Origin: Chthoniobacterales bacterium
GTDB lineage: Bacteria > Verrucomicrobiota > Verrucomicrobiia > Chthoniobacterales > DASVRZ01
Length of the DNA: 64,000 bases
Direction of reading: 5' to 3'
Assembly: GCA_038230215.1 (NCBI GenBank)
Contig: JBBRNR010000001.1
Coordinates: forward strand, 428,498-492,497
Position 1 is the first letter of the stretch, and every line of letters starts with the position of its first letter. The position numbers and the translations under genes are program-made. The notes below the pieces were generated by a model. That model did no database searches, was not told the DNA's origin, and worked only from the letters and a program-made list of their open reading frames with translations. Of this stretch, positions 11,925-64,000 are shown one piece after another.

Positions 11925-13136
11925 ATGAAAAATTGCATTCCCCTGGAGAAAATCTATTTCTGGCTCCGCTGGCCGCGAGGTTTTGTGGCAAGCCTGGCGA
12001 TCTATTCCGCCGTGTTTTTTTTCGTGCTGCTCGTCTGGACGTTTGGTAATGCGAGGCGCGAGGCGAAGTTTGGCCATAACAAGGACCAGGGGGAGTATGT
12101 GGCCCTGGCCAAAGACTTTAAGGACGGCCATTTTCTCACTGCCAACTTCAAGCCGCATCGACACCCGCTTTATCCGGCGTTGCTCGTGCCGGTGCTCGCG
12201 CTGGCTCCCGACAATGTCCACTGGCTGGGAGCCGTCAACGGCGTGGTGGGGTTGCTCGCCGTCGGGCTGACTTACTTTTTCGTTTTTCGGGCCGGGAAGC
12301 TGCATGGACCCGCGGCCTGCATTTCCATCCTGCTCGCGACCAACTTTTTTTTCATCAAGATGGCAGACATGGGCATCGTGACCGAGCCGACTTACATCCT
12401 CATGACTCTCTGCGCCGTGTGGTTGCTGGCCGATTATTGTTCCAAAAATAAACTCCGCCATCTCGTGGCGGGCTCTGTCTTCTTGGGTCTCGCTTTTATG
12501 ACACGACCCAATGGCATCCTGCTTTTAGTCGGATTACTAGCCACATTGTTCGTGAAATTCTGCTCGTCAGTGGCGGGCGGAATCCGGCTGCCAGCCTGCC
12601 TGCTAACATGGGTCCGGGATTCCATCGTGGCAGCTCTCGTCTTTGCTGTGGTCGCCAGCCCGCTGTTGTGGGTTAAGTCCAGGCTCTATGGGAACCCGCT
12701 GATGCAAGGCAAGATCATGCAGTATATGTGGAACGACGATTACGAGATGGCGCGCAGTAAAAAAGCGGCGCACAGCTTGTCGGAATATGTGTCCGCTCAT
12801 GGATGGGAAAGCATGGTGCGCCGGGCCGCAACAGGGCTGGCTGAAGTATTTTTTATCGTTCCGCTCGAGGAGGAGGTTCTGCCTATTTTGTATATCACTG
12901 CATTTGTTGGTGTGACGCTGGCTCTGGGGTCCATCCAAAAAAGTCGGGCATGGCCGGTGGGGCCGTTGATCTTCATTTTCTGTGTCGTCCAAATGCTGCC
13001 ACTCGCCTGGACGGCCATTTCCAATCCCACACATCGGATTCCGTATGCAGCCATCCTGCCATTCCTGTTGTTTTTTGGAGCTCACGGCCTCATCGAAATC
13101 TACAAAAGACAACTGGCCACCACTCCAGCCAGGTGA
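11925..13136 (+). CDS. polytopic membrane glycosyltransferase, GT39/ArnT-like
   Basis: The 403-aa protein has about 9-10 hydrophobic segments. An early extracytoplasmic loop with DQGEYVALAKDF resembles the acidic loop motif of ArnT/PMT-type transferases. Confidence 0.5.
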   Translation: MKNCIPLEKIYFWLRWPRGFVASLAIYSAVFFFVLLVWTFGNARREAKFGHNKDQGEYVALAKDFKDGHFLTANFKPHRHPLYPALLVPVLALAPDNVHWLGAVNGVVGLLAVGLTYFFVFRAGKLHGPAACISILLATNFFFIKMADMGIVTEPTYILMTLCAVWLLADYCSKNKLRHLVAGSVFLGLAFMTRPNGILLLVGLLATLFVKFCSSVAGGIRLPACLLTWVRDSIVAALVFAVVASPLLWVKSRLYGNPLMQGKIMQYMWNDDYEMARSKKAAHSLSEYVSAHGWESMVRRAATGLAEVFFIVPLEEEVLPILYITAFVGVTLALGSIQKSRAWPVGPLIFIFCVVQMLPLAWTAISNPTHRIPYAAILPFLLFFGAHGLIEIYKRQLATTPAR

Positions 13137-14113
13137 AATCCTCCATCGAAATCCTCCGGCTGCGTCCGAGGCACGTTTTTCGAATCAGCCGTGGGGCCAA
13201 GGCGGATGTTAGCAATGTGATCTTGAAACTTTCCCATGCGGGTTGCATCGGAATCGGGGAAGCCTCTCCCAACGCCTTTTACAACGAGACTGCGGACGAC
13301 GTCGCCAGCCGACTTACATCGCTTTCCGACTGGCTCACGGGCATCACCATTTCCAGCGCGGAAGACATCATTTCGCTCTGGCCCGCCATCTGGCAGCGCG
13401 TGCAACCATCCCGCGCCGCCGCCTGCGCCGTCGATCTCGCGCTCTGGGATTGGCTGGCGCAATCTCGGTCTGTCACGCTCTCAGAATTGCTTTGGAACGA
13501 ACCAGCGCGCCCGGTCACGAGCTGCGTCACCCTGGGACTTTCCGAGCCCGAGGAACTCGACGCCAAACTGACCGAACTCGCCGGTTTCCCGCTGATTAAA
13601 ATCAAACTCGACCGCAAAAATCCCGTCGAACTCGTCACCCAGATTCGCCAACTAACTTCCGCTCGACTCGTGGTCGATGCGAACGCCGCCTGGGACGCCG
13701 AAATGCTTTCTAACATCGCACCGCAACTCGCCTCACTCGACGTCGAATTCATCGAACAACCGCTCCCGCCCGGCGCTGATTTCACTGCCACTCGACCGCC
13801 TGTTTTCGCCGACGAAAGCTGCGTCACCCCTGAAGACGTGGACCGTCTGCCCGACGTATTTTCCGGGTTCAACATCAAGCTCGTCAAATGCGGCGGCAGC
13901 ACGCCCGCGCTCGAAATGCTGAAGCGCGGCCAACGTCGCGGACTCCGCACCATGACCGGCTGCATGTTAGAAAGCAGCGTCCTCATCGCCGCCGGCTACG
14001 CCCTCGCCCAACGCACCGACTACGCCGACCTCGACGGCGCCTGGCTGCTCCATTCGGAGCCGTTCGGGCGCGTCCGCTTCACCAATGGCATCATCACTTC
14101 CTTATTGTCTTGA
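13133..14113 (+). CDS. dipeptide epimerase (L-Ala-D/L-Glu epimerase type), enolase superfamily
   Basis: The GTG start at 13133 overlaps the upstream stop (GTGA). Motifs IGIGEASP, LIKIKLD, VVDANAAW, EFIEQPL, FADESC, NIKLVKCGG, CMLESS and DLDG match muconate-lactonizing/dipeptide epimerase subgroup catalytic positions. Confidence 0.8.
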   Translation: MKSSIEILRLRPRHVFRISRGAKADVSNVILKLSHAGCIGIGEASPNAFYNETADDVASRLTSLSDWLTGITISSAEDIISLWPAIWQRVQPSRAAACAVDLALWDWLAQSRSVTLSELLWNEPARPVTSCVTLGLSEPEELDAKLTELAGFPLIKIKLDRKNPVELVTQIRQLTSARLVVDANAAWDAEMLSNIAPQLASLDVEFIEQPLPPGADFTATRPPVFADESCVTPEDVDRLPDVFSGFNIKLVKCGGSTPALEMLKRGQRRGLRTMTGCMLESSVLIAAGYALAQRTDYADLDGAWLLHSEPFGRVRFTNGIITSLLS

Positions 14114-51872: not shown

Positions 51873-51904
51873 TTTCCTGATTCCGTTTTTCTGCTAGATT
51901 CCCA

Positions 51905-52327
51905 GCGTCCGACAGACGATCGCTGGTTTCGCGCAAGCAGAGCTGGAGGAAAGTCCGAACACCACAAGGCAATCCGCCGCGTAAAATGCGCGGGAGTTTT
52001 CGATGAAAATCAGATTCGACGGAAAGTGTCACAGAAAACAAACCGCCTCATGAGCAATCACGAGGTCAGGGTGAAAAGGCGGGGTAAGAGCCCACCGGGC
52101 GCGTTGTAAAATGCGCCGCATGACAAACCCCGGATGGTGCAAGACAAAACAGGAGATCCGAGCCGCCTGCTCATCCGCTGGCAACAGCGAAATCTCCGGG
52201 TAATAGTCGCATTCGAATCGCAAGATTCAGCGGCTCATTCCGATGCAAGTCGGATTGGGTTGAGATAAATGATCGTCACGGCTGCGGGCAACCGGAGCCG
52301 GACAAAATTCGGCTTATCGTCGGACAC
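51905..52327 (+). ncRNA. rnpB: RNase P RNA, bacterial type A
   Basis: Universal blocks GGAGGAAAGTCCGAACACC (51945-51963), ACAGAAAACAAACCGCC, GGGTGAAAAGGCGGGGTAAGAGCCCACCG, CAAACCCCGGATGGTGCAAGACAAAAC, AGATAAATGATCG and ACAAAATTCGGCTTA. P1 pairs GTCCGAC (51907-51913) with GTCGGAC (52319-52325). The ends are approximate. Confidence 0.85.
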
Positions 52328-52378
52328 CACGGCGGCTATTCGGAGAAATCCGGGTGGCCGCCACCTTGTTGGTGGGAA

Positions 52379-53421: not shown

Positions 53422-54084
53422 ATGGCCAATATTTTCCCACGCTGGTCGAATCAGCTTCCACTCAAAGTCCTCGTCTGCGTGGCCGTCCTCGGAGCCGCCA
53501 TCACCTGCGGAGTGGCCTACTACTTTACTCCGAAATACACTCGCGTCGGTTATCAGCCAATCCAGCCGGTGCCGTTTCAGCACGACATCCACGTTAACCA
53601 GCTAGGGATGGATTGCCGCTACTGCCATTCCAACGTCGAAGTCTCCGCCCACTCAAACATTCCCACGGCGCAGACCTGCATGAACTGCCACTCGCAGATT
53701 CAGAAAAACAACCCGAAACTCGCTGCTCTCAAGACCGCTTGGGAAACCGGCCTGCCCCTGCCCTGGGTGCGCATCCATTACGCGCCAGATTACGCGTATT
53801 TCAACCACTCCGTGCACGTCAATCGCGGCGTCAGTTGCGTCAGTTGCCACGGAAACATCAATCGCATGGAAGTCGTCTGGCACGACCAGCCGCAAAGCAT
53901 GAGCTGGTGTCTGGACTGCCATCGCAACCCCGAAAAACACGTTCGTCCAATGGAGCAAGTCTTCAATCTCGACTGGAAACCTGAAGGCAAGGATCCGCAA
54001 AAAGCTCAAAACGAAATCGGCACCCAGCTCGTAAAAGAATGGGCCATCCGCCCGCCGCAAAACTGCGGAGGCTGCCACCGCTAA
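53422..54084 (+). CDS. actA: alternative complex III subunit ActA, pentaheme cytochrome c
   Basis: N-terminal transmembrane segment and five CxxCH motifs (CRYCH, CMNCH, CVSCH, CLDCH, CGGCH). First gene of the act operon. Confidence 0.85.
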   Translation: MANIFPRWSNQLPLKVLVCVAVLGAAITCGVAYYFTPKYTRVGYQPIQPVPFQHDIHVNQLGMDCRYCHSNVEVSAHSNIPTAQTCMNCHSQIQKNNPKLAALKTAWETGLPLPWVRIHYAPDYAYFNHSVHVNRGVSCVSCHGNINRMEVVWHDQPQSMSWCLDCHRNPEKHVRPMEQVFNLDWKPEGKDPQKAQNEIGTQLVKEWAIRPPQNCGGCHR

Positions 54085-54095
54085 TCACCAGGTCA

Positions 54096-57000
54096 ATGAA
54101 ACGTATTTTACAACACCCAACCGAGGTCGCGACCGGCAAAAAATATTGGCGCAACGTCGAAGAACTGGCCGATACCCCGTCATTTCGCGGCTGGCTGGCG
54201 CGCGAGTTTCCCCAAGGTGCCGCCGAAATGGAGCTGGATGGCCCCGATGGGTTGAGCCGCCGCAGTTTCGTGCAAATCATGGGTGCCTCTCTGGCATTGG
54301 CTGGCTTCGGATTCAGCGGCTGCCGTCGTCCGGAAATCCAGTTTGCCGCACTCTCGAAGAGTGTGGAATGGAGCATTCCCGGGAAGGCTCTTTACTATGC
54401 CAGCGCGATGCCTCGTCGTGGTGGCGCGATGCCCTTGATGGTAACCACCAACGATGGTCGTCCAACAAAGATCGAAGGTAATCTGCTACATCCGTCGAGC
54501 GGAGGTTCGACCGATTTGCAGGCTCAGGCGACGATTCTCGACCTCTACAATCCAGATCGCTCCAGAACATTTGTTGGCCACGGCCAAAAATCCGAGAGAT
54601 CCGAGTTTGAGCGTTATCTAAAAGATCTTCTTGGTAAAGTCGGCACCGGTGCGGGAATGGCTTTCCTTTCCGATGTCAGCAACTCGCCGACCCGCGCACG
54701 TCTTCAAAAGGAGGTTTTAGCGAAATATCCTGGTGCCAAATTCCACGTTTATGATCCAACCGGCAGCCTTCAGCACGAAGCGGTCGCCTCAGCTTTCGGC
54801 GATGGCGTCGCGCTGAAATACAATCTCGAAAAGGCGAACGTCATTCTCGCAGTGGATTCTGATTTCCTCGGCATCGACGCCATTGGAACGGAAGTCACCC
54901 GTCAATTTTCCCGCCGCCGCAATCCCTCTGGCAAAATGAACCGCCTCTACGCGGTCGAAAATCGCTACACGATCACCGGGGGAATGGCCGATCATCGTCT
55001 GCGCCTCAAGGCCAGTCTGGTTCCAGCCTTTCTTGTAGCGCTCGCAAAAGAATTGGGAGTCGCTGCGACCGCGACAGGCACCGCTGATCTCGGAGCCAGT
55101 GCCGAGTGGATCAAGGAATGCGCCACTGATTTGCTGTCCGCCAAGGGAACGAGTCTCGTCTTCGTCGGACCCCACCAGCCCGTCGAAGTGCAGGCGCTCG
55201 GGTTCGCCATCAATCAAGCCCTGGGCAACATCGGCTCCACTATTTTGGGAGTCGCTGTTCCTCCTGCCGCCGCCGGAACACTGGCTGATCTGGTCGCGTC
55301 CATCAAAGCCAAGGCGATTTCGACGCTCTTCATTCTGGAGTCCAACCCGGTTTACACCGCTCCAGCGGACTTCCAATTTGCTGAACTGCTCAAGTCCGTT
55401 GCAGATGTCATTCATGTCGGTCTTCGCACGGACGCCACGGCTCAAGCGGCCAAATGGCATGTTCCAGGAACGCATTTTCTCGAAAGCTGGGACGATGCCT
55501 TCACCCCCGATGGGACTTACGTTCCGGTGCAGCCGATGATTCTGCCGCTTTTCGGAGGGCTTTCTATTAACGATGTGCTTTCGCTCGTTGCCGGGCTTCC
55601 GGTTCCGACCGGAGCGGAGTTGGTCAAAGCAACTTTCGACACCCTCGCCGCCGGAACTGACTGGCCGAAATTTCTCCAAAACGGCTATCTCGACATTCCC
55701 GCCGCCGTGGCTCCGCTCGCCTTCCGTGGATCGGCCCCGATGATTACGATCCCGAGTGACAAAGGAATCGAAATCGTTTTCCCGCCAGATTACAAAATTT
55801 CTGATGGCCACAGCATCGACAACGGCTGGCTGCACGAATTGCCAGACCCGATCACGAAGCTGACCTGGGACAACGCGGCACTCATTAGCCGCAAAACAGC
55901 CACCTCACTCGATCTCGCCCGGGCGAGCGATCCACTGGTTCGTTCCGACGAGGCGCACTTGGATAGCGATGTTGTTAAAATCACGGTGAATGGACGCAGC
56001 TTGGAGGTGCCCGTTCTGGTGACTCCGGGTCATGCGGACGACTCGATCACGCTACCTCGCGGCTACGGCCATGCCCCCGGCACCACTGGCAAAATCGGCA
56101 CCGGAGTCGGGTTCAATGCCTTTCAGCTCATCAGTTCGACCACCCCCTATGTTGCCGTGGCGACCGTGGAAAGAACTGGGAAACAATATAAACTCGCCCT
56201 TACCCAGGAGCACAATCAGATGGAAGGCCGCGCGCTCGTTCGCGAAGCCACCGCTGAGAAATTTGCCAAGGAACCCGAGTTTGCGAAAACAATGCACATC
56301 GACGGACATATTCCGCCGAATATCTCGCTCTACAAATCGCCGCCGCTGACCATGCCCGAGCAATGGGGCATGATGATCGATCTGAACACCTGCACTGGCT
56401 GCAGCACTTGCACGATTGCCTGCCAGGCGGAAAATAACATCCCCATCGTCGGCAAACAGCAGGTCATCAATAACCGCGAAATGCACTGGTTGCGTATTGA
56501 TCGCTACTTCGCCACGGCTGGTGACGAGCACAATGAAACGGAACCCGAAATGGTCATGCAGCCAATGGGTTGTCAGCAATGCGAAAACGCCCCGTGCGAG
56601 ACGGTTTGTCCGGTCAACGCCACGGTGCACAGCCCGGACGGCCTCAATGTGATGGCTTACAACCGCTGTATCGGCACGCGTTATTGCGCAAACAACTGCC
56701 CTTTCAAGGTGCGCCGCTTCAATTTTTTCAACTACAACGAGCGTCCGATCGAGAAAATCAAGGTCGGCATCCTGCCCGAGGCTAGCGGTCTTTATTATGG
56801 GCCTCTCGCTCCGAAAGGCACCGAGGAGCTCACGAAGATGCAGAAAAATCCGAACGTCACGGTTCGCATTCGGGGCGTCATGGAGAAATGCACCTACTGC
56901 ATCCAGCGCATCGAAGAAGGCCGCATCAGTTCGCGCATTAAGGCGGGCGCGTCTGACAAATTGAGAATTCCTACGGACTCGATTCAATCCGCCTGCATGC

Positions 57001-57305
57001 AGGCCTGCCCGACCGAGGCGATCACCTTCGGCGATTTGCGCGACCCAGACAGCGCAGTGGCCAAACTGCTAGACAACCCTCGCCGCTATCGCCTGCTGGA
57101 ATATTTAGACGTTCGCACCCGCACCAGCTATCTGGCGCGCATTCGCAACCCAAATCCAAAAATGCCCGGAGCTGAGAAAATCGCCGACATTTATCCCGAC
57201 GAATACGAGTCTCTTCACGGCGAGGGCGCCCCCGGCGGCCATGGTCCCGCGAAAAACCCGGACGAGTTGCATTCCAATCCAGAACCCGCAGGAGCACATC
57301 ACTAA
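54096..57305 (+). CDS. actB: alternative complex III subunit ActB (molybdopterin-like domain fused to 4Fe-4S ferredoxin domain)
   Basis: Start MKRILQHP (54096). Tat-like [18 protein letters not shown]-terminal Cys clusters [39 protein letters not shown]...CMQAC. Confidence 0.9.
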
Positions 57306-58795
57306 TGGCTACTTCCGACATGCTTGTAATGGGGCCGAACCCCACCGCCGAGGAACCGCTGCCGCGCATTCCTCTCGTCCTCAACAACCGCTCGATGGCT
57401 TGGGTCACTCAGCGTATCTGCGGCATCGTGGAAGGCCCGACGCCGCTCTGGTGGTTCATCGCGCTGGCGATCTGCGGCACACTGGCCCTCATCTGTTTTT
57501 CCTGCATCGGCTACCTTATTTCCACCGGCATCGGTGTCTGGGGATTGAACCATCCTGTCGGCTGGGCGTGGGACATCACGAATTTCGTGTTCTGGATCGG
57601 CATCGGCCACGCCGGAACGTTGATTTCGGCAGTTCTGTTTCTGACTCGTCAGAAATGGCGCACGTCGATCAACCGCGCCTCGGAGGCGATGACTCTTTTT
57701 GCGGTGGTGTGCGCCGGTATTTTCCCAGGCGTTCACGTCGGACGCATCTGGATGGTCTGGTTTCTTGCGCCGATCCCAAATGCCAATGGCATCTGGCCCA
57801 ACTTCAAATCACCGCTGCTTTGGGACGTGTTTGCGGTGTCCACTTATTTCACCGTCTCCGTGATGTTCTGGTTCGTCGGACTGATTCCCGATCTGGCAAC
57901 GCTACGGGATCGCGCCACGAGCAAAATTGCTCGGTTTGCCTACGGTTTTCTCGCGCTCGGCTGGCGCGGAGGCAATCGTCAATGGCGTCACTACGAGCTG
58001 GCTTATTTGATTCTTGCCGGTATCTCAACTCCTCTCGTGCTTTCGGTCCACTCCGTTGTGTCCTTCGACTTCGCGACTTCGGTCATTCCGGGGTGGCACA
58101 CAACGATTTTCCCACCGTATTTTGTGGCGGGCGCCATCTTCGGTGGCTTCGCCATGGTGCTCACGCTCATGCTTCCTGCCCGGGCAATTTATGGATTGCA
58201 CGATTTGATCACCCCGAAGCACGTCGATGTGATGTGCAAGATCATCCTCCTCACCGGCAGCATCGTGGGTTACGCATATTGCATGGAGTTTTTCACGGCA
58301 GCCTACTCGGGTAATCCGTATGAAACCTGGCTCTTCTTACGTAACCGCATGGCCGATCCTTATATTTTCAGCAAGCTCTACAACGTGCCAGTAGCCCCGT
58401 ATTGGTGGGCCTACTGGGCCATGATGTCGCTCAATGTCATCTCTCCCCAGATCTTCTGGTGGCCAAAAATGCGCTACAACATCTGGGTCGTTTTCGCCGT
58501 CTGCATGTGCGTCAACGCAGGCATGTGGTTCGAGCGCTTTGTCATCATCGTCACCTCCATCCACCGCGATTTCGTACCTTCTTCGTGGGGCATGTTCCAT
58601 CCGACTTGGGTCGATATCTGGACTTTCACCGGGACTTTCGGTTTGTTCATGACGTTATTCCTGCTTTTCATCCGCTTCCTACCGATGATCGCGATCTCCG
58701 AGGTGAAAGGCGTCCTGCCCGAAGCCGACCCGCATTATCATCCCAAAAAGGGCGATCACGAAAACCAGCCTGTCACCACGGGATTGCACTACTAA
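57305..58795 (+). CDS. actC: alternative complex III subunit ActC (NrfD/PsrC-like quinol-interacting membrane subunit)
   Basis: About 10 transmembrane segments. The NrfD-like [27 protein letters not shown] motif. Start overlaps the actB stop (TAATG). Confidence 0.9.
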
Positions 58796-58798
58796 TTT

Positions 58799-59353
58799 AT
58801 GGCTGCCACCGCTGAACGACGCAAAATTTACGGACTGGGCGCACGCTTTTCGAGTGCGACCGAGATTTACGAAGCCGCCAAAAAAATTCGTGATAAAGGA
58901 TTCCGTCGTTGGGATGTTCACACCCCCTACCCAGTCCACGGAATGGACGCCGCCATGGGTCTGAAGCATTCCATTTTGGGCAAAATCGTGTTTTGCGGTG
59001 GAATTACCGGATTCACCACAGCCGTTTGTTTGGAGTTTATTCCATCCAGTATTCTTTACCCGTTGATCGTTCATGGAAAACCAACTGGCCTTTTTACCGT
59101 TCCAGCTTTTTTCCCGATCATGTTCGAGTTGACGATCCTGTTTTCAGCGTTCACCGCCGTCGGCACCATGTTCGTGCTCAACGGATTGCCGCGCTGGCAT
59201 CATCCTGTCTTTAACTGGGATGGCTTTGGCCAGTTTAGCGACGACGGTTTTATGATGATCATCGAAGCAGCCGATCCAAAATTTACCGAACAGGGAACCT
59301 CGGAACTCCTCGCTGAGCTGGGCGCCAAGGATATAACGCTGATTCACGAATAA
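58799..59353 (+). CDS. actD: alternative complex III subunit ActD (DUF3341)
   Basis: Its position in the operon, its size of 184 aa, and the YGLGARFSSATEIYEAAKKIRDKGFRRWDVHTPYPVHG pattern typical of DUF3341. Confidence 0.8.
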   Translation: MAATAERRKIYGLGARFSSATEIYEAAKKIRDKGFRRWDVHTPYPVHGMDAAMGLKHSILGKIVFCGGITGFTTAVCLEFIPSSILYPLIVHGKPTGLFTVPAFFPIMFELTILFSAFTAVGTMFVLNGLPRWHHPVFNWDGFGQFSDDGFMMIIEAADPKFTEQGTSELLAELGAKDITLIHE

Positions 59354-59359
59354 ACGACG

Positions 59360-60031
59360 ATGCGTTACTTTTTTCTCATTTTACTTTTGGTCGGCATCGG
59401 TGTGATCGCGGGGGCGGGTTTCCGTGGATCCATCTCCCGCAAACCGCCCACGGAGATTTTTCCCGACATGGATCGCCAGGTCAAATATAAGCCCCAGAAA
59501 ACGAGCGAGTTCTTTGCCGATGGACGCGTCGAACGTCCGCCGGTCCTGGGCACGGTTCCTTTTGGATACAACGAACCTCGCAAACCCATTCCCGGCCAGA
59601 ACACCGGCCCCGGTCTCTATAAAGGATTCAGCCAGGGTGACGACTATCTCAACACCGGTAAAATGGGTGCCAACTGGGGCAGCGGCATTCCCGTTCCGGT
59701 GAATGAGGACCTCCTCAATCGCGGACATCAGCGCTTTCAAATCAATTGCGCTGTCTGCCACGGAGCAACGGGCGCTGGCAACGGTATCACCACTCAATAC
59801 GGCTTGGTCGGCGTCCCAACTTATCATCAGGATCGTCTCCGCAACATGGCCGACGGGGAAATTTACAATACCATTGTGCATGGTAAAAACACCATGATGC
59901 CCTACGGCGATAAAGTGACTCGTGAGGATCGCTGGGCCATTGTGGCCTATGTCCGCGCCTTGCAACGTGCGCAAAATGCTGCAAAAACCGACGTTCCAGC
60001 AGACGTTCTAGCCAAATTGGAGGCCAAGTGA
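59360..60031 (+). CDS. actE: alternative complex III subunit ActE, monoheme cytochrome c
   Basis: Single CAVCHG heme motif with downstream Met (NTMMPYG). N-terminal transmembrane/signal segment. Confidence 0.8.
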   Translation: MRYFFLILLLVGIGVIAGAGFRGSISRKPPTEIFPDMDRQVKYKPQKTSEFFADGRVERPPVLGTVPFGYNEPRKPIPGQNTGPGLYKGFSQGDDYLNTGKMGANWGSGIPVPVNEDLLNRGHQRFQINCAVCHGATGAGNGITTQYGLVGVPTYHQDRLRNMADGEIYNTIVHGKNTMMPYGDKVTREDRWAIVAYVRALQRAQNAAKTDVPADVLAKLEAK

Positions 60032-61260
60032 GCGACCATACTATTACCTTACCGAAAGCGGAGCAGTTTGACTCCAAAGCTACCAGTCGACTCAGCTTTT
60101 CCGCCGCCGTGGTGGGAATTATTGGACTGATCATCGCTACAATTTACGGCTTCCGGGCGACTCACGATGTTCTGCTAGCCAAGCAGTTTGCCTTTTCCGC
60201 GCTCTTCGGATTTCTCTTCTTCTTCACCATTCTGGCCGGTTCGCTCTTCTGGATCATCATCCACCATGCCACCGACGCCGCCTGGTCGGTCGTGGTCCGG
60301 CGGCAGATGGAAAATCTGGCGTCCTTGATGCCTTACCTAGCTCTGTTTTTTATTCCCATCGTGCTCTTCCGCACCACGATCTGGGAGTGGTTGAGCGTCG
60401 ATCCGGCACATGACCCGGTTTTCGCGAGCAAGACTTGGTATTTTTATCCAGTGATCGCCGGCGTGAAGATTCCACTCTTCTGGATTCGCTCCGTTTTCTA
60501 CTTCGCCTTTTTCACGTTCTTTGCCCGCACTTTCCGCAGCCATTCCGCCGCGCAGGACGCCACGGGCGACATCAAACACAGCTTGAAAATGCGCACCAAA
60601 TCCTATCGCGCACTTCCCCTTTTTGCACTTTCGATCACCTTCGCTGGTATCGATTGGGTCATGGCCCTCAACTATAAATGGTACTCCACCATGTGGGGTG
60701 TTTACATTTTCGCCGGTTCCGCGCTCGCTTCCATGGCCGTGCTCATACTTGTCATCACCGGCTTGAAAAAGCTTGGCTATCTTCAGGTCGTCAATATGGA
60801 GCATTACCATATTATGGGGAAATTTCTCCTGACCTTCTCCATTTTCTGGGCCTACATCGGCTTCTCGCAATACATGCTCATCTGGTATGCGAACATCCCG
60901 GAGGAAACCGAATACTTCCTCCTCCGCAATACCGAGAGCTGGAACACGCTGAATATTTTCCTCGTTGTCGGGCACTTTTTCATTCCGTTCCTGATGCTGC
61001 TCTTCCGTTTCGTGAAGAAAGTTCCCACCATTCTGAGTTGGATCGCCATCTGGATCCTGTGCATGCATTTCCTGGATATTTACATCATCGTCCTGCCAAA
61101 CATCCACCACGCCGGGTTTGCGCCGCACATCCTCGATCTGATTTGTCCGATCACCATCGGCTGCTTCCTCGTCGTCGCCTTCCTCTATGAAGTCGGCAAG
61201 CGTTCCTTGTTTCCCGCTCGCGATCCGCGTCTGGTGGAATGCCTCAAACTGACCAACTAA
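60028..61260 (+). CDS. actF: alternative complex III subunit ActF (second NrfD-like membrane subunit)
   Basis: GTG start overlaps the actE stop. About 9-10 transmembrane segments. The position after actE is as in described ACIII operons. Confidence 0.8.
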   Translation: MSDHTITLPKAEQFDSKATSRLSFSAAVVGIIGLIIATIYGFRATHDVLLAKQFAFSALFGFLFFFTILAGSLFWIIIHHATDAAWSVVVRRQMENLASLMPYLALFFIPIVLFRTTIWEWLSVDPAHDPVFASKTWYFYPVIAGVKIPLFWIRSVFYFAFFTFFARTFRSHSAAQDATGDIKHSLKMRTKSYRALPLFALSITFAGIDWVMALNYKWYSTMWGVYIFAGSALASMAVLILVITGLKKLGYLQVVNMEHYHIMGKFLLTFSIFWAYIGFSQYMLIWYANIPEETEYFLLRNTESWNTLNIFLVVGHFFIPFLMLLFRFVKKVPTILSWIAIWILCMHFLDIYIIVLPNIHHAGFAPHILDLICPITIGCFLVVAFLYEVGKRSLFPARDPRLVECLKLTN

Positions 61261-61270
61261 CCCTGACACC

Positions 61271-61651
61271 ATGGTCTCTTCTGAATTATCCGATCACAAA
61301 CCCGGCGTGCTGACCGCCTTTCGCGTTCTCGGCGCCTTCTTCTCGGCTGCGATCATCGTCGCTCTAATACTCTGGGCCACCCGCGGCACCACCACTTACG
61401 ATCCCGACCGCTCCACCAAACGTTACGCGAACCTGAAAAAGCTGAACGATGATAACGCCAAAAAAACGGGCGAATATGCCGTGGTTGATAAAGCCAAGGG
61501 CATTTACCAGCTTCCGATCAAGGCCGCCATCACATTGACCGTTAAGGACTTAGCGAAAGTCCAACCGCATCCTGCGTATCCCGTGGTCACGGCTCCAGCC
61601 GCGCCTGCCGCCGCGCCATCTCCAGTCGCAACACCTGCCGCCCAACCATGA
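61271..61651 (+). CDS. single-pass membrane protein linking the ACIII and cbb3-like genes
   Basis: The 126-aa protein has one transmembrane segment (VLGAFFSAAIIVALILWA) and a Pro/Ala-rich tail. Its stop overlaps the next start (ATGA). Confidence 0.5.
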   Translation: MVSSELSDHKPGVLTAFRVLGAFFSAAIIVALILWATRGTTTYDPDRSTKRYANLKKLNDDNAKKTGEYAVVDKAKGIYQLPIKAAITLTVKDLAKVQPHPAYPVVTAPAAPAAAPSPVATPAAQP

Positions 61652-63138
61652 GTGCCATTCTTGCCGAACCCGAATTGACCCCGACTCTGACCTCCTATCC
61701 AAAGGTCAGCGAGGCCGACATGCGCGCTCGCAGGGAACTCGACGCTTCCGCTTCCGGCCCCGTTGCCCTCCTTTTCACCTTTGGCATTCTCTGGCTGGTC
61801 GCTTGGAGCGTGCTCAATCTCATCCTGACTTGGAAACTGCTCTCACCAGACTTCTTATCGAGTTACAGCTTTCTCACCTTCGGTCGTCTGCGTCCCATCG
61901 CGACCAGTATGTTTGCCTACGGCTGGGCATCTTGCGCGGGAATGGGCGTCTCGCTCTGGCTCATGGTTCGCCTCTGCCGGGTTAAACTTCGCTCACCGCT
62001 CTCCGTCGTCATCGGCACCCTGATCTGGAATGCTGGACTTTTCGCAGGCATTGTGGCGATTCACCTCGGCTACGGTCGTTCGATGGAATACCTGGAACTC
62101 CCGGTTTGGTCACAACTCACCATGTTGGGTGGTTTTTCCATCATCGGAATTTGGATCGTTGGCCTCTTTTATAATCGCCGTGAGGGCACCGGATTCATCA
62201 CCCAAGCCTACGTGACAGCCGCCTTCATATGGATGGCTTGGACGCTTCTCGCGGCGAACATTTTCGCTGCTATGCCTTGGGTGCACGGCGTGATCATTGC
62301 CATTAATAACGCCTGGTTCATCAGCGGCATCACCCATTATTGGTTCACTGCCATCGGACTTGGAGCGGCCTTTTACCTCATCCCGAAAGTCACGGGACGT
62401 CCGATTCACAGCTACTATCTCGCGAATCTCGGCTTCTGGGGTTTTGCGTTTCTAGCCGGTTGGGGCGGCTTGCAACGTTATAACGGAGGTCCTATTCCGA
62501 CATGGTTGATTACGTTGAACATTGTGGCCACCGCCCTGACCATCATTCCAGTCGCGACGGTGGCGGTGAACCACCATTTTACCATGGCTGGCGGGGCTCA
62601 TCAGATGATGCATTACAGCCCTACCCTGCGTTTCACGGTTGTCGGCGCGATGGCTTACACGGTTTCCTCCTTGACCGCGATCCTCTTGTCCCTACGCACC
62701 GTCGCCTCGGAAACCGGGCTGACGTATGTCAACCTCGCCCAAAGTCATCTTGTGCTTTACGCGTTTTTCACCTTCATCATGTTCGGCGCAATCTACTTCA
62801 TCGTCCCGCGGTTGGTGGGCCGCGAGTGGGTTTCGGCTACTTTCATTCGATTCCATTTCTGGGGCACGGCTTACGGTATAGGCCTGACCATTATTACACT
62901 GACCATCGCCGGACTTTTCCAAGGAAAAGACTGGGCCAACGCGCTGGTCGACAATACCACAATCGTCCAGACCACTCTGCCGCTGCTCCGTGGCTCGATC
63001 ATCGGCGCTTTGCTACTGCTTGGCGGTCATCTTATTTTCGCCCTCCATTTTTTGTTGATGATTCTGCGCCTCGGCCAGATCAGCGACGAACCTACGCTCA
63101 TGGCCCAGCTGCACTCGGAGGAGTGCTCACTAAAATGA
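61648..63138 (+). CDS. CcoN-like heme-copper oxidase subunit I homologue lacking canonical His ligands
   Basis: About 12 transmembrane segments and the CcoN-specific block FGRLRP. The following residues read IATS where CcoN has (L)HT(N/S). AGWGGLQRY sits where AGPHHLHY is expected. AQSHLV sits where GHVH is expected. Confidence 0.65.
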   Translation: MSAILAEPELTPTLTSYPKVSEADMRARRELDASASGPVALLFTFGILWLVAWSVLNLILTWKLLSPDFLSSYSFLTFGRLRPIATSMFAYGWASCAGMGVSLWLMVRLCRVKLRSPLSVVIGTLIWNAGLFAGIVAIHLGYGRSMEYLELPVWSQLTMLGGFSIIGIWIVGLFYNRREGTGFITQAYVTAAFIWMAWTLLAANIFAAMPWVHGVIIAINNAWFISGITHYWFTAIGLGAAFYLIPKVTGRPIHSYYLANLGFWGFAFLAGWGGLQRYNGGPIPTWLITLNIVATALTIIPVATVAVNHHFTMAGGAHQMMHYSPTLRFTVVGAMAYTVSSLTAILLSLRTVASETGLTYVNLAQSHLVLYAFFTFIMFGAIYFIVPRLVGREWVSATFIRFHFWGTAYGIGLTIITLTIAGLFQGKDWANALVDNTTIVQTTLPLLRGSIIGALLLLGGHLIFALHFLLMILRLGQISDEPTLMAQLHSEECSLK

Positions 63139-63821
63139 AATATTTCTTTCCCGGCATCTTCGGAGCCTTTCTTCTCGGCTGGATCGTCCAGATCGGAATT
63201 CCTTACGCCAGTCTGGCCAAACTCGACCCCGTCGTCGATCCAGACACGAACGAGCCCTATCCCTACAATGTCGCCGGACTCGCCCAGCAAGGCCGCGCTG
63301 TTTACGCCGCCAACGGTTGCGTGAGCTGCCACACCCAGCAAGTACGCGCCGCTTACATGGGTGCCGACGTGGATCGTCATTGGGGCACGCGTCAGAGCGT
63401 CGCTCGCGATTATCTCTACGAGGACGCTGTTTTCCTCGGGTCACTCCGCGCCGGCCCTGATCTGAGCAGTGTCGGAGCGCGTGATGTCGCAGGCACCAAG
63501 GCCCCAGACCTCGGCTCAGTGGAGGCCCGGGCAAAAAACGCCCAGTGGCATTACGTGCATCTTTACAATCCACGGATTGTGCAGCCGAAGTCGAACATGC
63601 CGTCGTTTTCCTACCTGTTCGACACCAAGAAAATCAAAGGCGAACGCTCCGCCAAAGCCCTCGATCTTCCCCCACCTTACAGCGCGACCGATGGCTATGA
63701 GATCGTTCCCACTCCAGAAGCGGAAGCTCTCGTTGGCTATCTGCTTTCCCTTAATAAAAATCACGACGTGCCCGAAATGAAAGGCGCTCCCGCCCCGGCC
63801 AAGGCCAACCAGGCAAAGTAA
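63135..63821 (+). CDS. ccoO: cbb3-type cytochrome c oxidase subunit II (CcoO), monoheme
   Basis: Start at ATG 63135 overlaps the upstream stop (ATGA). GRAVYAANGCVSCHTQQVR, LRAGPDLSSVG, WHYVHLYNPRIVQPKSNMPSF are canonical CcoO blocks. Confidence 0.8.
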   Translation: MKYFFPGIFGAFLLGWIVQIGIPYASLAKLDPVVDPDTNEPYPYNVAGLAQQGRAVYAANGCVSCHTQQVRAAYMGADVDRHWGTRQSVARDYLYEDAVFLGSLRAGPDLSSVGARDVAGTKAPDLGSVEARAKNAQWHYVHLYNPRIVQPKSNMPSFSYLFDTKKIKGERSAKALDLPPPYSATDGYEIVPTPEAEALVGYLLSLNKNHDVPEMKGAPAPAKANQAK

Positions 63822-63824
63822 ACC

Positions 63825-64000
63825 ATGAACGAGCCTACCAATAAAATTCCCGAGTTCCTCATTCCTCAGAAATATCCGAAGAATGAAATGGGCGGAAAAA
63901 TGGATTACGACGAATCCTCCGACATCGCCCGTCTGCATGGCGCGGTCGGTCGCGAGAAGGACGAGCCCGGCTACGACGGTGTTAACAAAGCCGTTCCCGG
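63825..64000 (+). CDS. 5' part of a further gene (possibly CcoP/FixP-N-like), truncated by the window end
   Basis: The ATG at 63825 lies 4 nt after the ccoO stop. Translation is MNEPTNKIPEFLIPQKYPKNEMGGKMDYDESSDIARLHGAVGREKDEPGYDGVNKAVP.... The YDG(V/I) segment is reminiscent of the FixP N-terminal motif. Confidence 0.35.
   Translation, partial: MNEPTNKIPEFLIPQKYPKNEMGGKMDYDESSDIARLHGAVGREKDEPGYDGVNKAVP

Follow-up and report, generated by a model that had tools for sequence, protein, structure and literature searches.

Loss of cofactor ligands from a CcoN-derived protein encoded behind alternative complex III in Verrucomicrobiota, and its possible role as a structural scaffold

Introduction

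Directly behind the genes for alternative complex III (ACIII), the 64,000-nucleotide stretch of a Chthoniobacterales genome analysed here (contig JBBRNR010000001.1, positions 428,498 to 492,497; hereafter the window) encodes a 496-aa protein, CcoN*, that resembles CcoN, the catalytic subunit of cbb3-type oxidases, and that a preliminary description of the sequence had reported to be without the canonical histidines for haem and CuB. The question arises what such a protein is kept for. A cbb3 gene is routinely taken as a marker of high-affinity, microaerobic respiration, the proteins concerned are annotated by NCBI and JGI as 'cbb3-type cytochrome c oxidase subunit I', and the ACIII-adjacent cbb3 genes of Verrucomicrobia have been treated as an ordinary oxidase (PMC8498564, PMC6688271). 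If the subunit were dead, the inference from such a gene to physiology would fail for a large part of the Verrucomicrobiota, with cultured Chthoniobacter flavus and Udaeobacter, a soil group abundant worldwide, among the taxa affected. From the analysis presented below, we consider it highly probable that CcoN* is not a haem-copper reductase and has been retained for a non-catalytic role.

Results

A CcoN fold without its cofactor residues

The earlier assignment of the product of positions 61648-63138 as CcoN-like, with about 12 transmembrane segments, holds. The protein matches Pfam COX1 (E=3.4e-44) and, in a phmmer search against the PDB, Pseudomonas stutzeri CcoN (3MK7_A, E=1.3e-26, the posterior support being high around the ligand blocks), and the structure prediction that had been proposed as a check, an AlphaFold2 model, is a confident and intact 12-helix CcoN fold (predicted local distance difference test 92.3, predicted TM-score 0.92). 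Foldseek returned cbb3 CcoN chains as best matches of this model (3MK7_A and 9g83_t, TM-score 0.85-0.91), with NorB (E ~1e-10) and the A/B-type subunits I well behind. Against the NCBIfam ccoN equivalog TIGR00780 the protein reaches 134.1 bits, far under the cutoff of 583.15. It does not have the features of NorB either, namely an FeB site of three His and a Glu together with both haems, as the three His columns read Ser, Gln and Arg.

Ligand columns were mapped with phmmer onto 3MK7_A, and the register was fixed with canonical verrucomicrobial intermediates of 46% identity, such as P0021. The seven cofactor residues of P. stutzeri CcoN correspond to the following positions on the forward strand of the window:

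H60, haem b ligand: A85, codon 61900-61902 (GCG)
H207, CuB ligand: S226, codon 62323-62325 (AGC)
Y251, cross-linked Tyr: A270, codon 62455-62457 (GCC)
H257, CuB ligand: Q276, codon 62473-62475 (CAA)
H258, CuB ligand: R277, codon 62476-62478 (CGT)
H345, haem b3 ligand: Q365, codon 62740-62742 (CAA)
H347, haem b ligand: H367, retained, codon 62746-62748 (CAT)

Six of the seven residues are substituted in CcoN*, with H367, the equivalent of H347, as the sole survivor, and none of the three CuB His, the cross-linked Tyr and the proximal His of haem b3 is present. The mapping, which had itself been suggested as a check, thus finds no His at six of the seven columns, and the claim that the ligands differ at every position has to be narrowed by H347. 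The more specific statements that the low-spin haem b His has become Ala and that one of two His is kept in LAQSHLVLY, the survivor being the haem b ligand H367, proved correct. Two adjacent CuB His had likewise been reported as lost, which is borne out, but they are replaced by Gln-Arg and not by Gly-Gly, and the block around H207, which had been thought impossible to align, does align.

In the same alignments as the ligand-less proteins, canonical sequences read HHYHHHH (here and in all signatures below in the order H60, H207, Y251, H257, H258, H345, H347). The ambiguity of register between H345 and H347 is settled by a series that runs from AHSHLG in canonical proteins over AYSHLG in a large ligand-less subclade to AQSHLV in CcoN*. 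Bis-His ligation of haem b is not preserved, given the Ala at H60 and a column of H367 that is His, Tyr or Gln within the window's own clade.

Two sites had been named as possible substitutes for the missing ligands, the HH of VNHHFT (HH309-310) and the H of THYW (H230). The former is shared by canonical relatives such as P0021 and is hence a feature of the clade rather than a substitute ligand, with H310 conserved to more than 90% over canonical and ligand-less groups alike, while the latter varies even inside the window's clade. Among further candidates, H403 and H461 are likewise found in canonical relatives with all ligands intact, and M88 varies within the window's clade. Beyond the residues shared with canonical proteins, that clade has only two invariant residues of the types His, Cys or Met, namely H467 and M471, both close to the C-terminus of helix 12.

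Judged from these alignments, this descendant of CcoN is left without a CuB site, without the cross-linked Tyr and without the haem b3 ligand, and of the two ligands of haem b it keeps one. With the residues as mapped, CcoN* cannot reduce O2 or NO as a haem-copper enzyme, and we infer that bound haem b is absent as well.

A family of ligand-less proteins in Verrucomicrobiota

With a threshold of E<=1e-5, a protein search returned 1732 relatives, and many of the best 120 are named as Chthoniobacterales or Verrucomicrobiota; 575 encoding loci were found in GTDB species representatives, where the best 80 come almost entirely from Chthoniobacterales, Udaeobacter and other metagenome-assembled genomes (MAGs) of Verrucomicrobiota. 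When 1.84 billion cluster representatives were searched with a profile, 700 clusters (50% identity) matched at E<=1e-30, canonical CcoN included; among the best 150 of these, 132 full-length sequences are ligand-less. Family members for which the source is named belong to Verrucomicrobiota without exception.

A survey of ACIII-linked CcoN-like genes in related genomes, as previously advised, found the ligand loss in 83 of the 84 loci first fetched, and the order actABCDEF, small gene, ccoN*, ccoO, ccoP is identical in all 84 as far as the contigs permit. The substituting residues vary by subclade:

Window's clade: A-[S/N/G/A]-[A/Y]-Q-[R/H]-Q-[H/Y/Q]
L005 and L006: AGYHQQY
Chthoniobacter sp.: YQAVRQH and variants
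Large clade including Udaeobacter MAGs: HN[S/A][Q/T]RY[H/Y/Q]
L090, a distant member: AGGAAAS, same operon, CxxCH in ccoO and ccoP
L091, a distant member from Verrucomicrobiales: ANGQKLF, same operon, CxxCH in ccoO and ccoP
L092, cultured Chthoniobacter flavus: FQTVREQ, no ligand His at all, same operon order

At the six ligand positions, 67 of the 132 ligand-less representatives have no His, 47 have one and 16 have two. Conservation of at least 90% is confined to 24 columns, 19 of which hold Trp, Gly or Pro and the rest M1, Leu, Arg, Asn and Ala, so that not one of the 24 is His, Cys, Tyr, Lys, Asp or Glu.

Two short contigs with this verrucomicrobial operon, L058 and L069, were assigned to MAGs labelled Blastochloridaceae and Candidatus Dormiibacterota, probably through binning errors.

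The gene is under purifying selection

A dying gene would be expected to lose its catalytic residues almost completely, as seen here, and a decaying pseudogene, or else an artefact of sequencing, assembly or alignment, could account for the substitutions described above. We regard this explanation as refuted. The frame is open in every full-length copy examined (>80 loci), truncation occurring only at contig ends, and the ratio of non-synonymous to synonymous substitution rates (dN/dS, Nei-Gojobori) is 0.047 between ccoN* and its counterpart in locus L085, next to 0.029 for actF, 0.026 for actD and 0.070 for ccoO in the same comparison; against more distant relatives, the values for ccoN* are 0.09-0.13. 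The gene is under strong purifying selection, comparable to that on the ACIII genes. An error of sequencing or assembly, which the preliminary description had listed among the possible refutations, is contradicted by L085 itself, an independent NCBI MAG contig whose product is 97% identical in amino acid sequence and carries the identical seven residues, as well as by the 132 ligand-less members among the best 150 clusters. Misalignment is spoken against by the canonical intermediates that anchor the register and by the HHYHHHH reading of canonical sequences in the same alignments. CcoN* hence combines lost catalytic residues, purifying selection and phylogenetic persistence, as a pseudoenzyme does.

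Canonical sister proteins and the origin of the loss

P0021, a protein with a full set of ligands and 46% identity to CcoN*, was used as a query and retrieved 108 canonical verrucomicrobial CcoN and a few intermediates. The hosts of the 108 belong to Terrimicrobiaceae, Verrucomicrobiales and subdivision 3, and the canonical sister operons have the same ACIII setting. Conservation of at least 97% among these 108 sequences is found at 156 sites, of which 118 are kept and 38 changed in the ligand-less family. Every one of the six lost cofactor positions belongs to the changed sites, as do many residues that neighbour them in sequence, the P. stutzeri columns E122, W203, G211, E323, H337 and R437 among them, and the increase in column entropy is greatest in helices 6, 7 and 10. 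As read from these columns, the relaxed constraint is localised around the former cofactor sites.

CcoS is the factor required for loading cofactors into CcoN. A FixS/CcoS-like transmembrane protein of 60-77 aa is encoded directly upstream of ccoN in all five canonical-ligand operons examined (L058, L086, L087, L088 and L089), and no CcoS-like gene was found in the window, in the window's clade or in most ligand-less loci. In the HNAQRY(H/Y) subclade, about 14 ligand-less loci contain, between the small gene and ccoN*, a CcoS/FixS-like remnant open reading frame (ORF) without a transmembrane segment (L075 ~9854, L045 ~8422, L052 ~9816, L067 ~2098, L077 ~9822, L078 ~9861, L080 ~9202, L081 ~9795, L083 ~9876, and others). 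The remnant retains only the cytoplasmic C-terminal motif MSxxDLFxxxK...IFDxxEPIGxxTDxVxPxRRWFR, and since this motif is well conserved, the remnant may be functional in its own right.

When the ligand columns were left out and the 108 canonical sequences included, a neighbour-joining analysis recovered the ligand-less proteins as a single split in 50/50 bootstraps; the separation is less clear-cut in the wider family, with one canonical representative outside. The pattern is consistent with a single origin of ligand loss, neighbour-joining being a weak method. A neighbour-joining tree rooted on P. stutzeri alone nested the canonical within the ligand-less proteins, which would imply several losses, and its rooting is not trusted.

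Partial losses were also seen among CcoN variants. Only the cross-linked Tyr is missing in P0196, P0198, P0213, P0226 and P0228 (HHSHHHH) and in P0182 (HHFHHHH); P0231 (HHFAHHH) has lost the H257 ligand in addition, and the first CuB His alone is replaced in P0195 and P0203 (HRYHHHH, by Arg) and in P0204 (HNYHHHH, by Asn), P0195 being encoded in the operon of L089. These Tyr-less and H207-substituted proteins may represent intermediates toward ligand loss or, alternatively, enzymes that do not reduce O2.

The ten-gene operon and its cytochromes

CcoN* is encoded within a ten-gene operon, actABCDEF, actG-like, ccoN*, ccoO, ccoP, which in the window comprises:

53422..54084, + strand: actA, penta-haem cytochrome c subunit of ACIII, five CxxCH in the translation
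54039..57305, + strand: actB, Fe-S and molybdopterin-like subunit of ACIII, homologues with Fer4 matches
57305..58795, + strand: actC, NrfD-type membrane subunit of ACIII, Pfam NrfD E=2.4e-17
58799..59353, + strand: actD, Pfam ActD E=1.2e-57
59360..60031, + strand: actE, mono-haem cytochrome c of ACIII, Pfam Cytochrome_CBB3 and Cytochrom_C
60028..61260, + strand: actF, second large ACIII membrane subunit, by position and synteny only (no Pfam match)
61271..61651, + strand: small protein of 126 aa with a single transmembrane segment, ActG-like candidate by a marginal profile match
61648..63138, + strand: ccoN*, 496 aa, CcoN-derived, 12 transmembrane helices, by Pfam COX1, ligand mapping and AlphaFold2
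63135..63821, + strand: ccoO, membrane-anchored mono-haem cytochrome c of 228 aa, Pfam FixO, CVSCH
63825..64000, + strand: 5' end of a ccoP-like gene, cut by the window end, N-terminus matching an L001 gene

The co-linear genes actA-actB-actC-actD-actE-actF make up an ACIII of the ActABCDEF[G] type. Homologues of actA in L001 and L087 have Cytochrome_C7 matches, a single CxxCH is found in actE in 66/68 loci, and the slot of actF between actE and the small gene is constant in every locus with a sufficiently long contig. The listed actB ORF begins 46 nt within actA (54039-54084); its homologues in L001 and L003 (1054-1058 aa) start downstream of the actA stop, and the true start in the window probably lies downstream of 54084, just past that stop.

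The small protein is characterised by a conserved G-x-x-x-(L/I)P(I/V) motif and a Pro/Ala-rich tail, and it had no match in Pfam, NCBIfam or a single-sequence PDB search. A homologue is present in 85/89 related loci, in canonical and ligand-less operons alike. When a profile of 11 homologues was used, the best PDB match was ActG of ACIII (8k9e_G, a marginal E=0.047), and the match falls on the conserved IPIdrAmdL-type motif. The small protein is probably an ActG-like subunit of ACIII rather than part of the cbb3-derived module, as far as this profile and the distribution go.

The ORFs and junctions behind it lie where they had been placed, with a CcoO that carries CVSCH after ccoN* and overlapping ATGA at both the small gene/ccoN* and the ccoN*/ccoO junctions (translational coupling). 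Adjacent ccoO and ccoP genes with CxxCH, as in a cbb3 operon, are thus present. CcoO matches Pfam FixO with 83 bits and 3MK7_B with E=1.5e-17, haem motif and axial Met (KSNMPSF) being aligned, and it has one CxxCH in 82/82 loci; in the Udaeobacter-containing subclade (e.g. L022, L040, L051, L056, L060) it is extended to ~300-480 aa. The ccoP start in the window shares its N-terminus with L001 12199-12933 (Pfam Cytochrom_C, Cytochrome_CBB3 and, weakly, FixP_N). In close relatives, CcoP has 244 aa, a transmembrane anchor and one CxxCH, and a single CxxCH is found in 67/71 loci overall.

In C. flavus (L092), ccoP (12162-13373, 403 aa) encodes two cytochrome c domains, and an extra cytochrome c gene of 165 aa (13519-14016) lies between ccoP and the COX1 gene of an aa3-type oxidase, so that more c-haems are encoded between the ACIII and oxidase genes.

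A separate oxidase downstream

An A-family COX1 gene in the same orientation follows at a distance of 1.5-9.6 kb in 28/83 ligand-less loci, and in 23/43 of those whose downstream flank is 9.5 kb or longer. It has the canonical GHPEVY, HHMY and HFH motifs, and the accompanying COX2 carries a CuA-like motif (CxQLCGxGHxxM) and no CxxCH, which makes this oxidase an aa3 and not a caa3 type. In L091 and in L092, genes for COX1, COX3, a COX4-like protein, COX2, CtaA, CtaB and SCO1 come almost directly after ccoP. A search of the 64-kb window with the family hidden Markov model and with A-type COX1 and COX2 queries found no second oxidase gene.

A lone COX2-like gene without CxxCH stands right after ccoP, with no adjacent COX1, in L087 (12970-13848, Terrimicrobiaceae) and L089 (12899-13738); its CuA-like motif was checked in L087 only.

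Discussion

A probable structural scaffold and the rival explanations

As the cofactor residues are lost while the fold, the partners and the selection are kept, we prefer to read CcoN* as a structural scaffold. A structural or adaptor role was one of two possibilities raised in the preliminary description, and it is favoured by the dN/dS values, the intact fold, the constant place in the operon, the c-haem motifs of the partners, the loss of the CcoS-like gene and the frequent aa3 oxidase downstream. CcoN* would anchor the membrane-tethered mono-haem cytochromes CcoO and CcoP beside ACIII; ACIII would oxidise menaquinol, the electrons would exit via the haems of ActA/ActE to those of CcoP/CcoO, and these would pass them to CuA of a separate aa3-type oxidase that has no fused cytochrome c domain. 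We infer that CcoN* associates physically with both ACIII and the aa3 oxidase. Taken as a whole, a cofactor-free scaffold that holds CcoO/CcoP by ACIII for relay to a separate oxidase appears to us somewhat probable, and for the specific electron relay to an aa3 oxidase we see the chances as evenly balanced.

Several observations weigh against this reading. In the window's clade, the operon ends after ccoP, and no aa3 genes follow it in L001, L003 or L085. In Flavobacterium johnsoniae, the mono-haem subunit of ACIII is reportedly dispensable for electron transfer to aa3 (PMC8552683), and an additional c-haem relay is therefore not obviously required. Finally, the Udaeobacter-containing subclade is the largest of the family, and most of its members keep both haem b His (H60, H347), with Asn, Gln, Arg and Tyr well conserved at H207, H257, H258 and H345. 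There could thus be a residual or new redox site in this branch, which, unlike the window's clade, may still bind haem b.

These residues lead to the second of the possibilities raised initially, a new cofactor arrangement, in which one or two haems would be held by non-canonical ligands, for example H367 and another residue. In the HN[SA]QRYH subclade, such a site might consist of a bis-His haem b and a Tyr-ligated haem that faces an Asn/Gln/Arg pocket, and the chemistry might be a copper-free reduction of peroxide, NO or another acceptor with electrons from CcoO/CcoP. The conservation of N207, Q257, R258 and Y345, each in ~82-90% of 120 homologues and the query, would fit this idea, as would the CcoS-like remnant conserved in that subclade and the c-haem donors CcoO/CcoP, which are retained everywhere. 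In the protein of the window, however, H60 is replaced by Ala and H345 by Gln, the remaining His varies to Tyr or Gln within the clade, and apart from H467 and M471 the clade offers no invariant His, Cys or Met of its own. Family-wide, the seven positions are hypervariable, half of the representatives lack any His there, no polar residue is conserved as a candidate ligand, and the haem-surrounding columns H337, R437 and E323 are degraded too. On the basis of these residues, the HN[SA]QRYH subclade is the only one for which a copper-free redox site of a new kind is plausible; for the window protein such a site is poorly supported, and as an explanation of CcoN* we deem it very unlikely. Slightly less improbable, though still unlikely, is that CcoN* serves as an assembly or stability module for ACIII or reuses a former proton-input channel as a route for protons coupled to ACIII, in which case a relay through CcoO/CcoP would not be obligatory. 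The gene follows the ACIII genes directly and is translationally coupled, and S255, Y256, N308, H309/H310, T312 and Y337 (helices 6-9) are conserved within the Chthoniobacterales family. None of these polar residues, however, is among the 24 columns conserved in the wider family, so that a polar channel is not conserved there, and the strict retention of the c-haem motifs in CcoO and CcoP argues that electron transfer by these two proteins is itself selected.

Returning to the scaffold, one could speculate that ligand-less CcoN is an obligatory adaptor of an unrecognised ACIII-CcoN*OP-aa3 supercomplex of the Verrucomicrobiota and, in a bolder version, that the Udaeobacter-containing subclade may have acquired a new copper-free haem active site of which the window's clade would be a further-degenerated derivative; we consider the two together rather less likely than not.

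Relation to known systems

With the cbb3 CcoN/FixN of the C-family (P. stutzeri 3MK7 / 5DJQ), CcoN* shares the 12-helix fold, sequence homology and the ccoO/ccoP neighbours, and with canonical verrucomicrobial CcoN (~46% identity) also the ACIII-linked operon. It differs from cbb3 CcoN in the missing CuB His, Tyr, haem b3 His and one haem b His, and in the lack of a CcoS-like gene. Dead homologues of enzymes are known as structural subunits of respiratory complexes, as exemplified by the cofactor-less molybdopterin-like domain of ActB and by the bc1 core proteins, which derive from mitochondrial processing peptidases. In these cases, as in CcoN*, an enzyme fold is selected after loss of its active site or cofactor inside an electron-transfer complex.

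Within the haem-copper superfamily, the active-site His are conserved in all families but one, gNOR being the first to replace any, with one His changed to Asp, and NOD likewise has an altered active site (Murali et al., 2024, PMC11214002). Like CcoN*, both have replaced canonical active-site residues and lack the cross-linked Tyr. In those families, however, the changes concern one or a few residues, and both haems and a metal site are kept, whereas CcoN* has lost all CuB His and the haem b3 ligand, and its former ligand positions are not conserved. We found no case of a haem-copper catalytic subunit kept as a dead structural subunit in the searchable literature, and no description of a ligand-less CcoN family in searchable full text, although subscription papers, such as Refojo et al. 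(2010), may mention one.

The arrangement of ACIII genes followed by terminal-oxidase genes recalls the ACIII-aa3 supercomplex of F. johnsoniae (Sun et al., 2018, PMC6004266, as cited in PMC8498564) and the ACIII-oxidase superoperons (Refojo et al., 2010; PMC8407424). Common to both that supercomplex and the verrucomicrobial scheme would be a c-type haem domain between the ACIII haems and CuA. In the F. johnsoniae structure, the linking cytochrome c reportedly belongs to a caa3 oxidase. In the verrucomicrobial loci, COX2 has no haem c domain, and the candidate for the link is the CcoO/CcoP pair on a dead CcoN.

If the proposed scaffold role is correct, no catalytic subunit of a haem-copper oxidase would have been known before CcoN* to survive as a pseudoenzyme free of cofactors, and CcoN* would be a natural case of a respiratory catalytic core reused as a scaffold, which would widen the range of the superfamily. 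It also suggests a testable electron route from ACIII to an aa3 oxidase that lacks a cytochrome c domain of its own, and as C. flavus is in culture, the question is accessible to experiment.

Other features of the window

No tRNA genes were found across the whole 64-kb window. A full-length class A bacterial RNase P RNA (Rfam RF00010, 216.8 bits) lies at positions 51904-52332 on the + strand.

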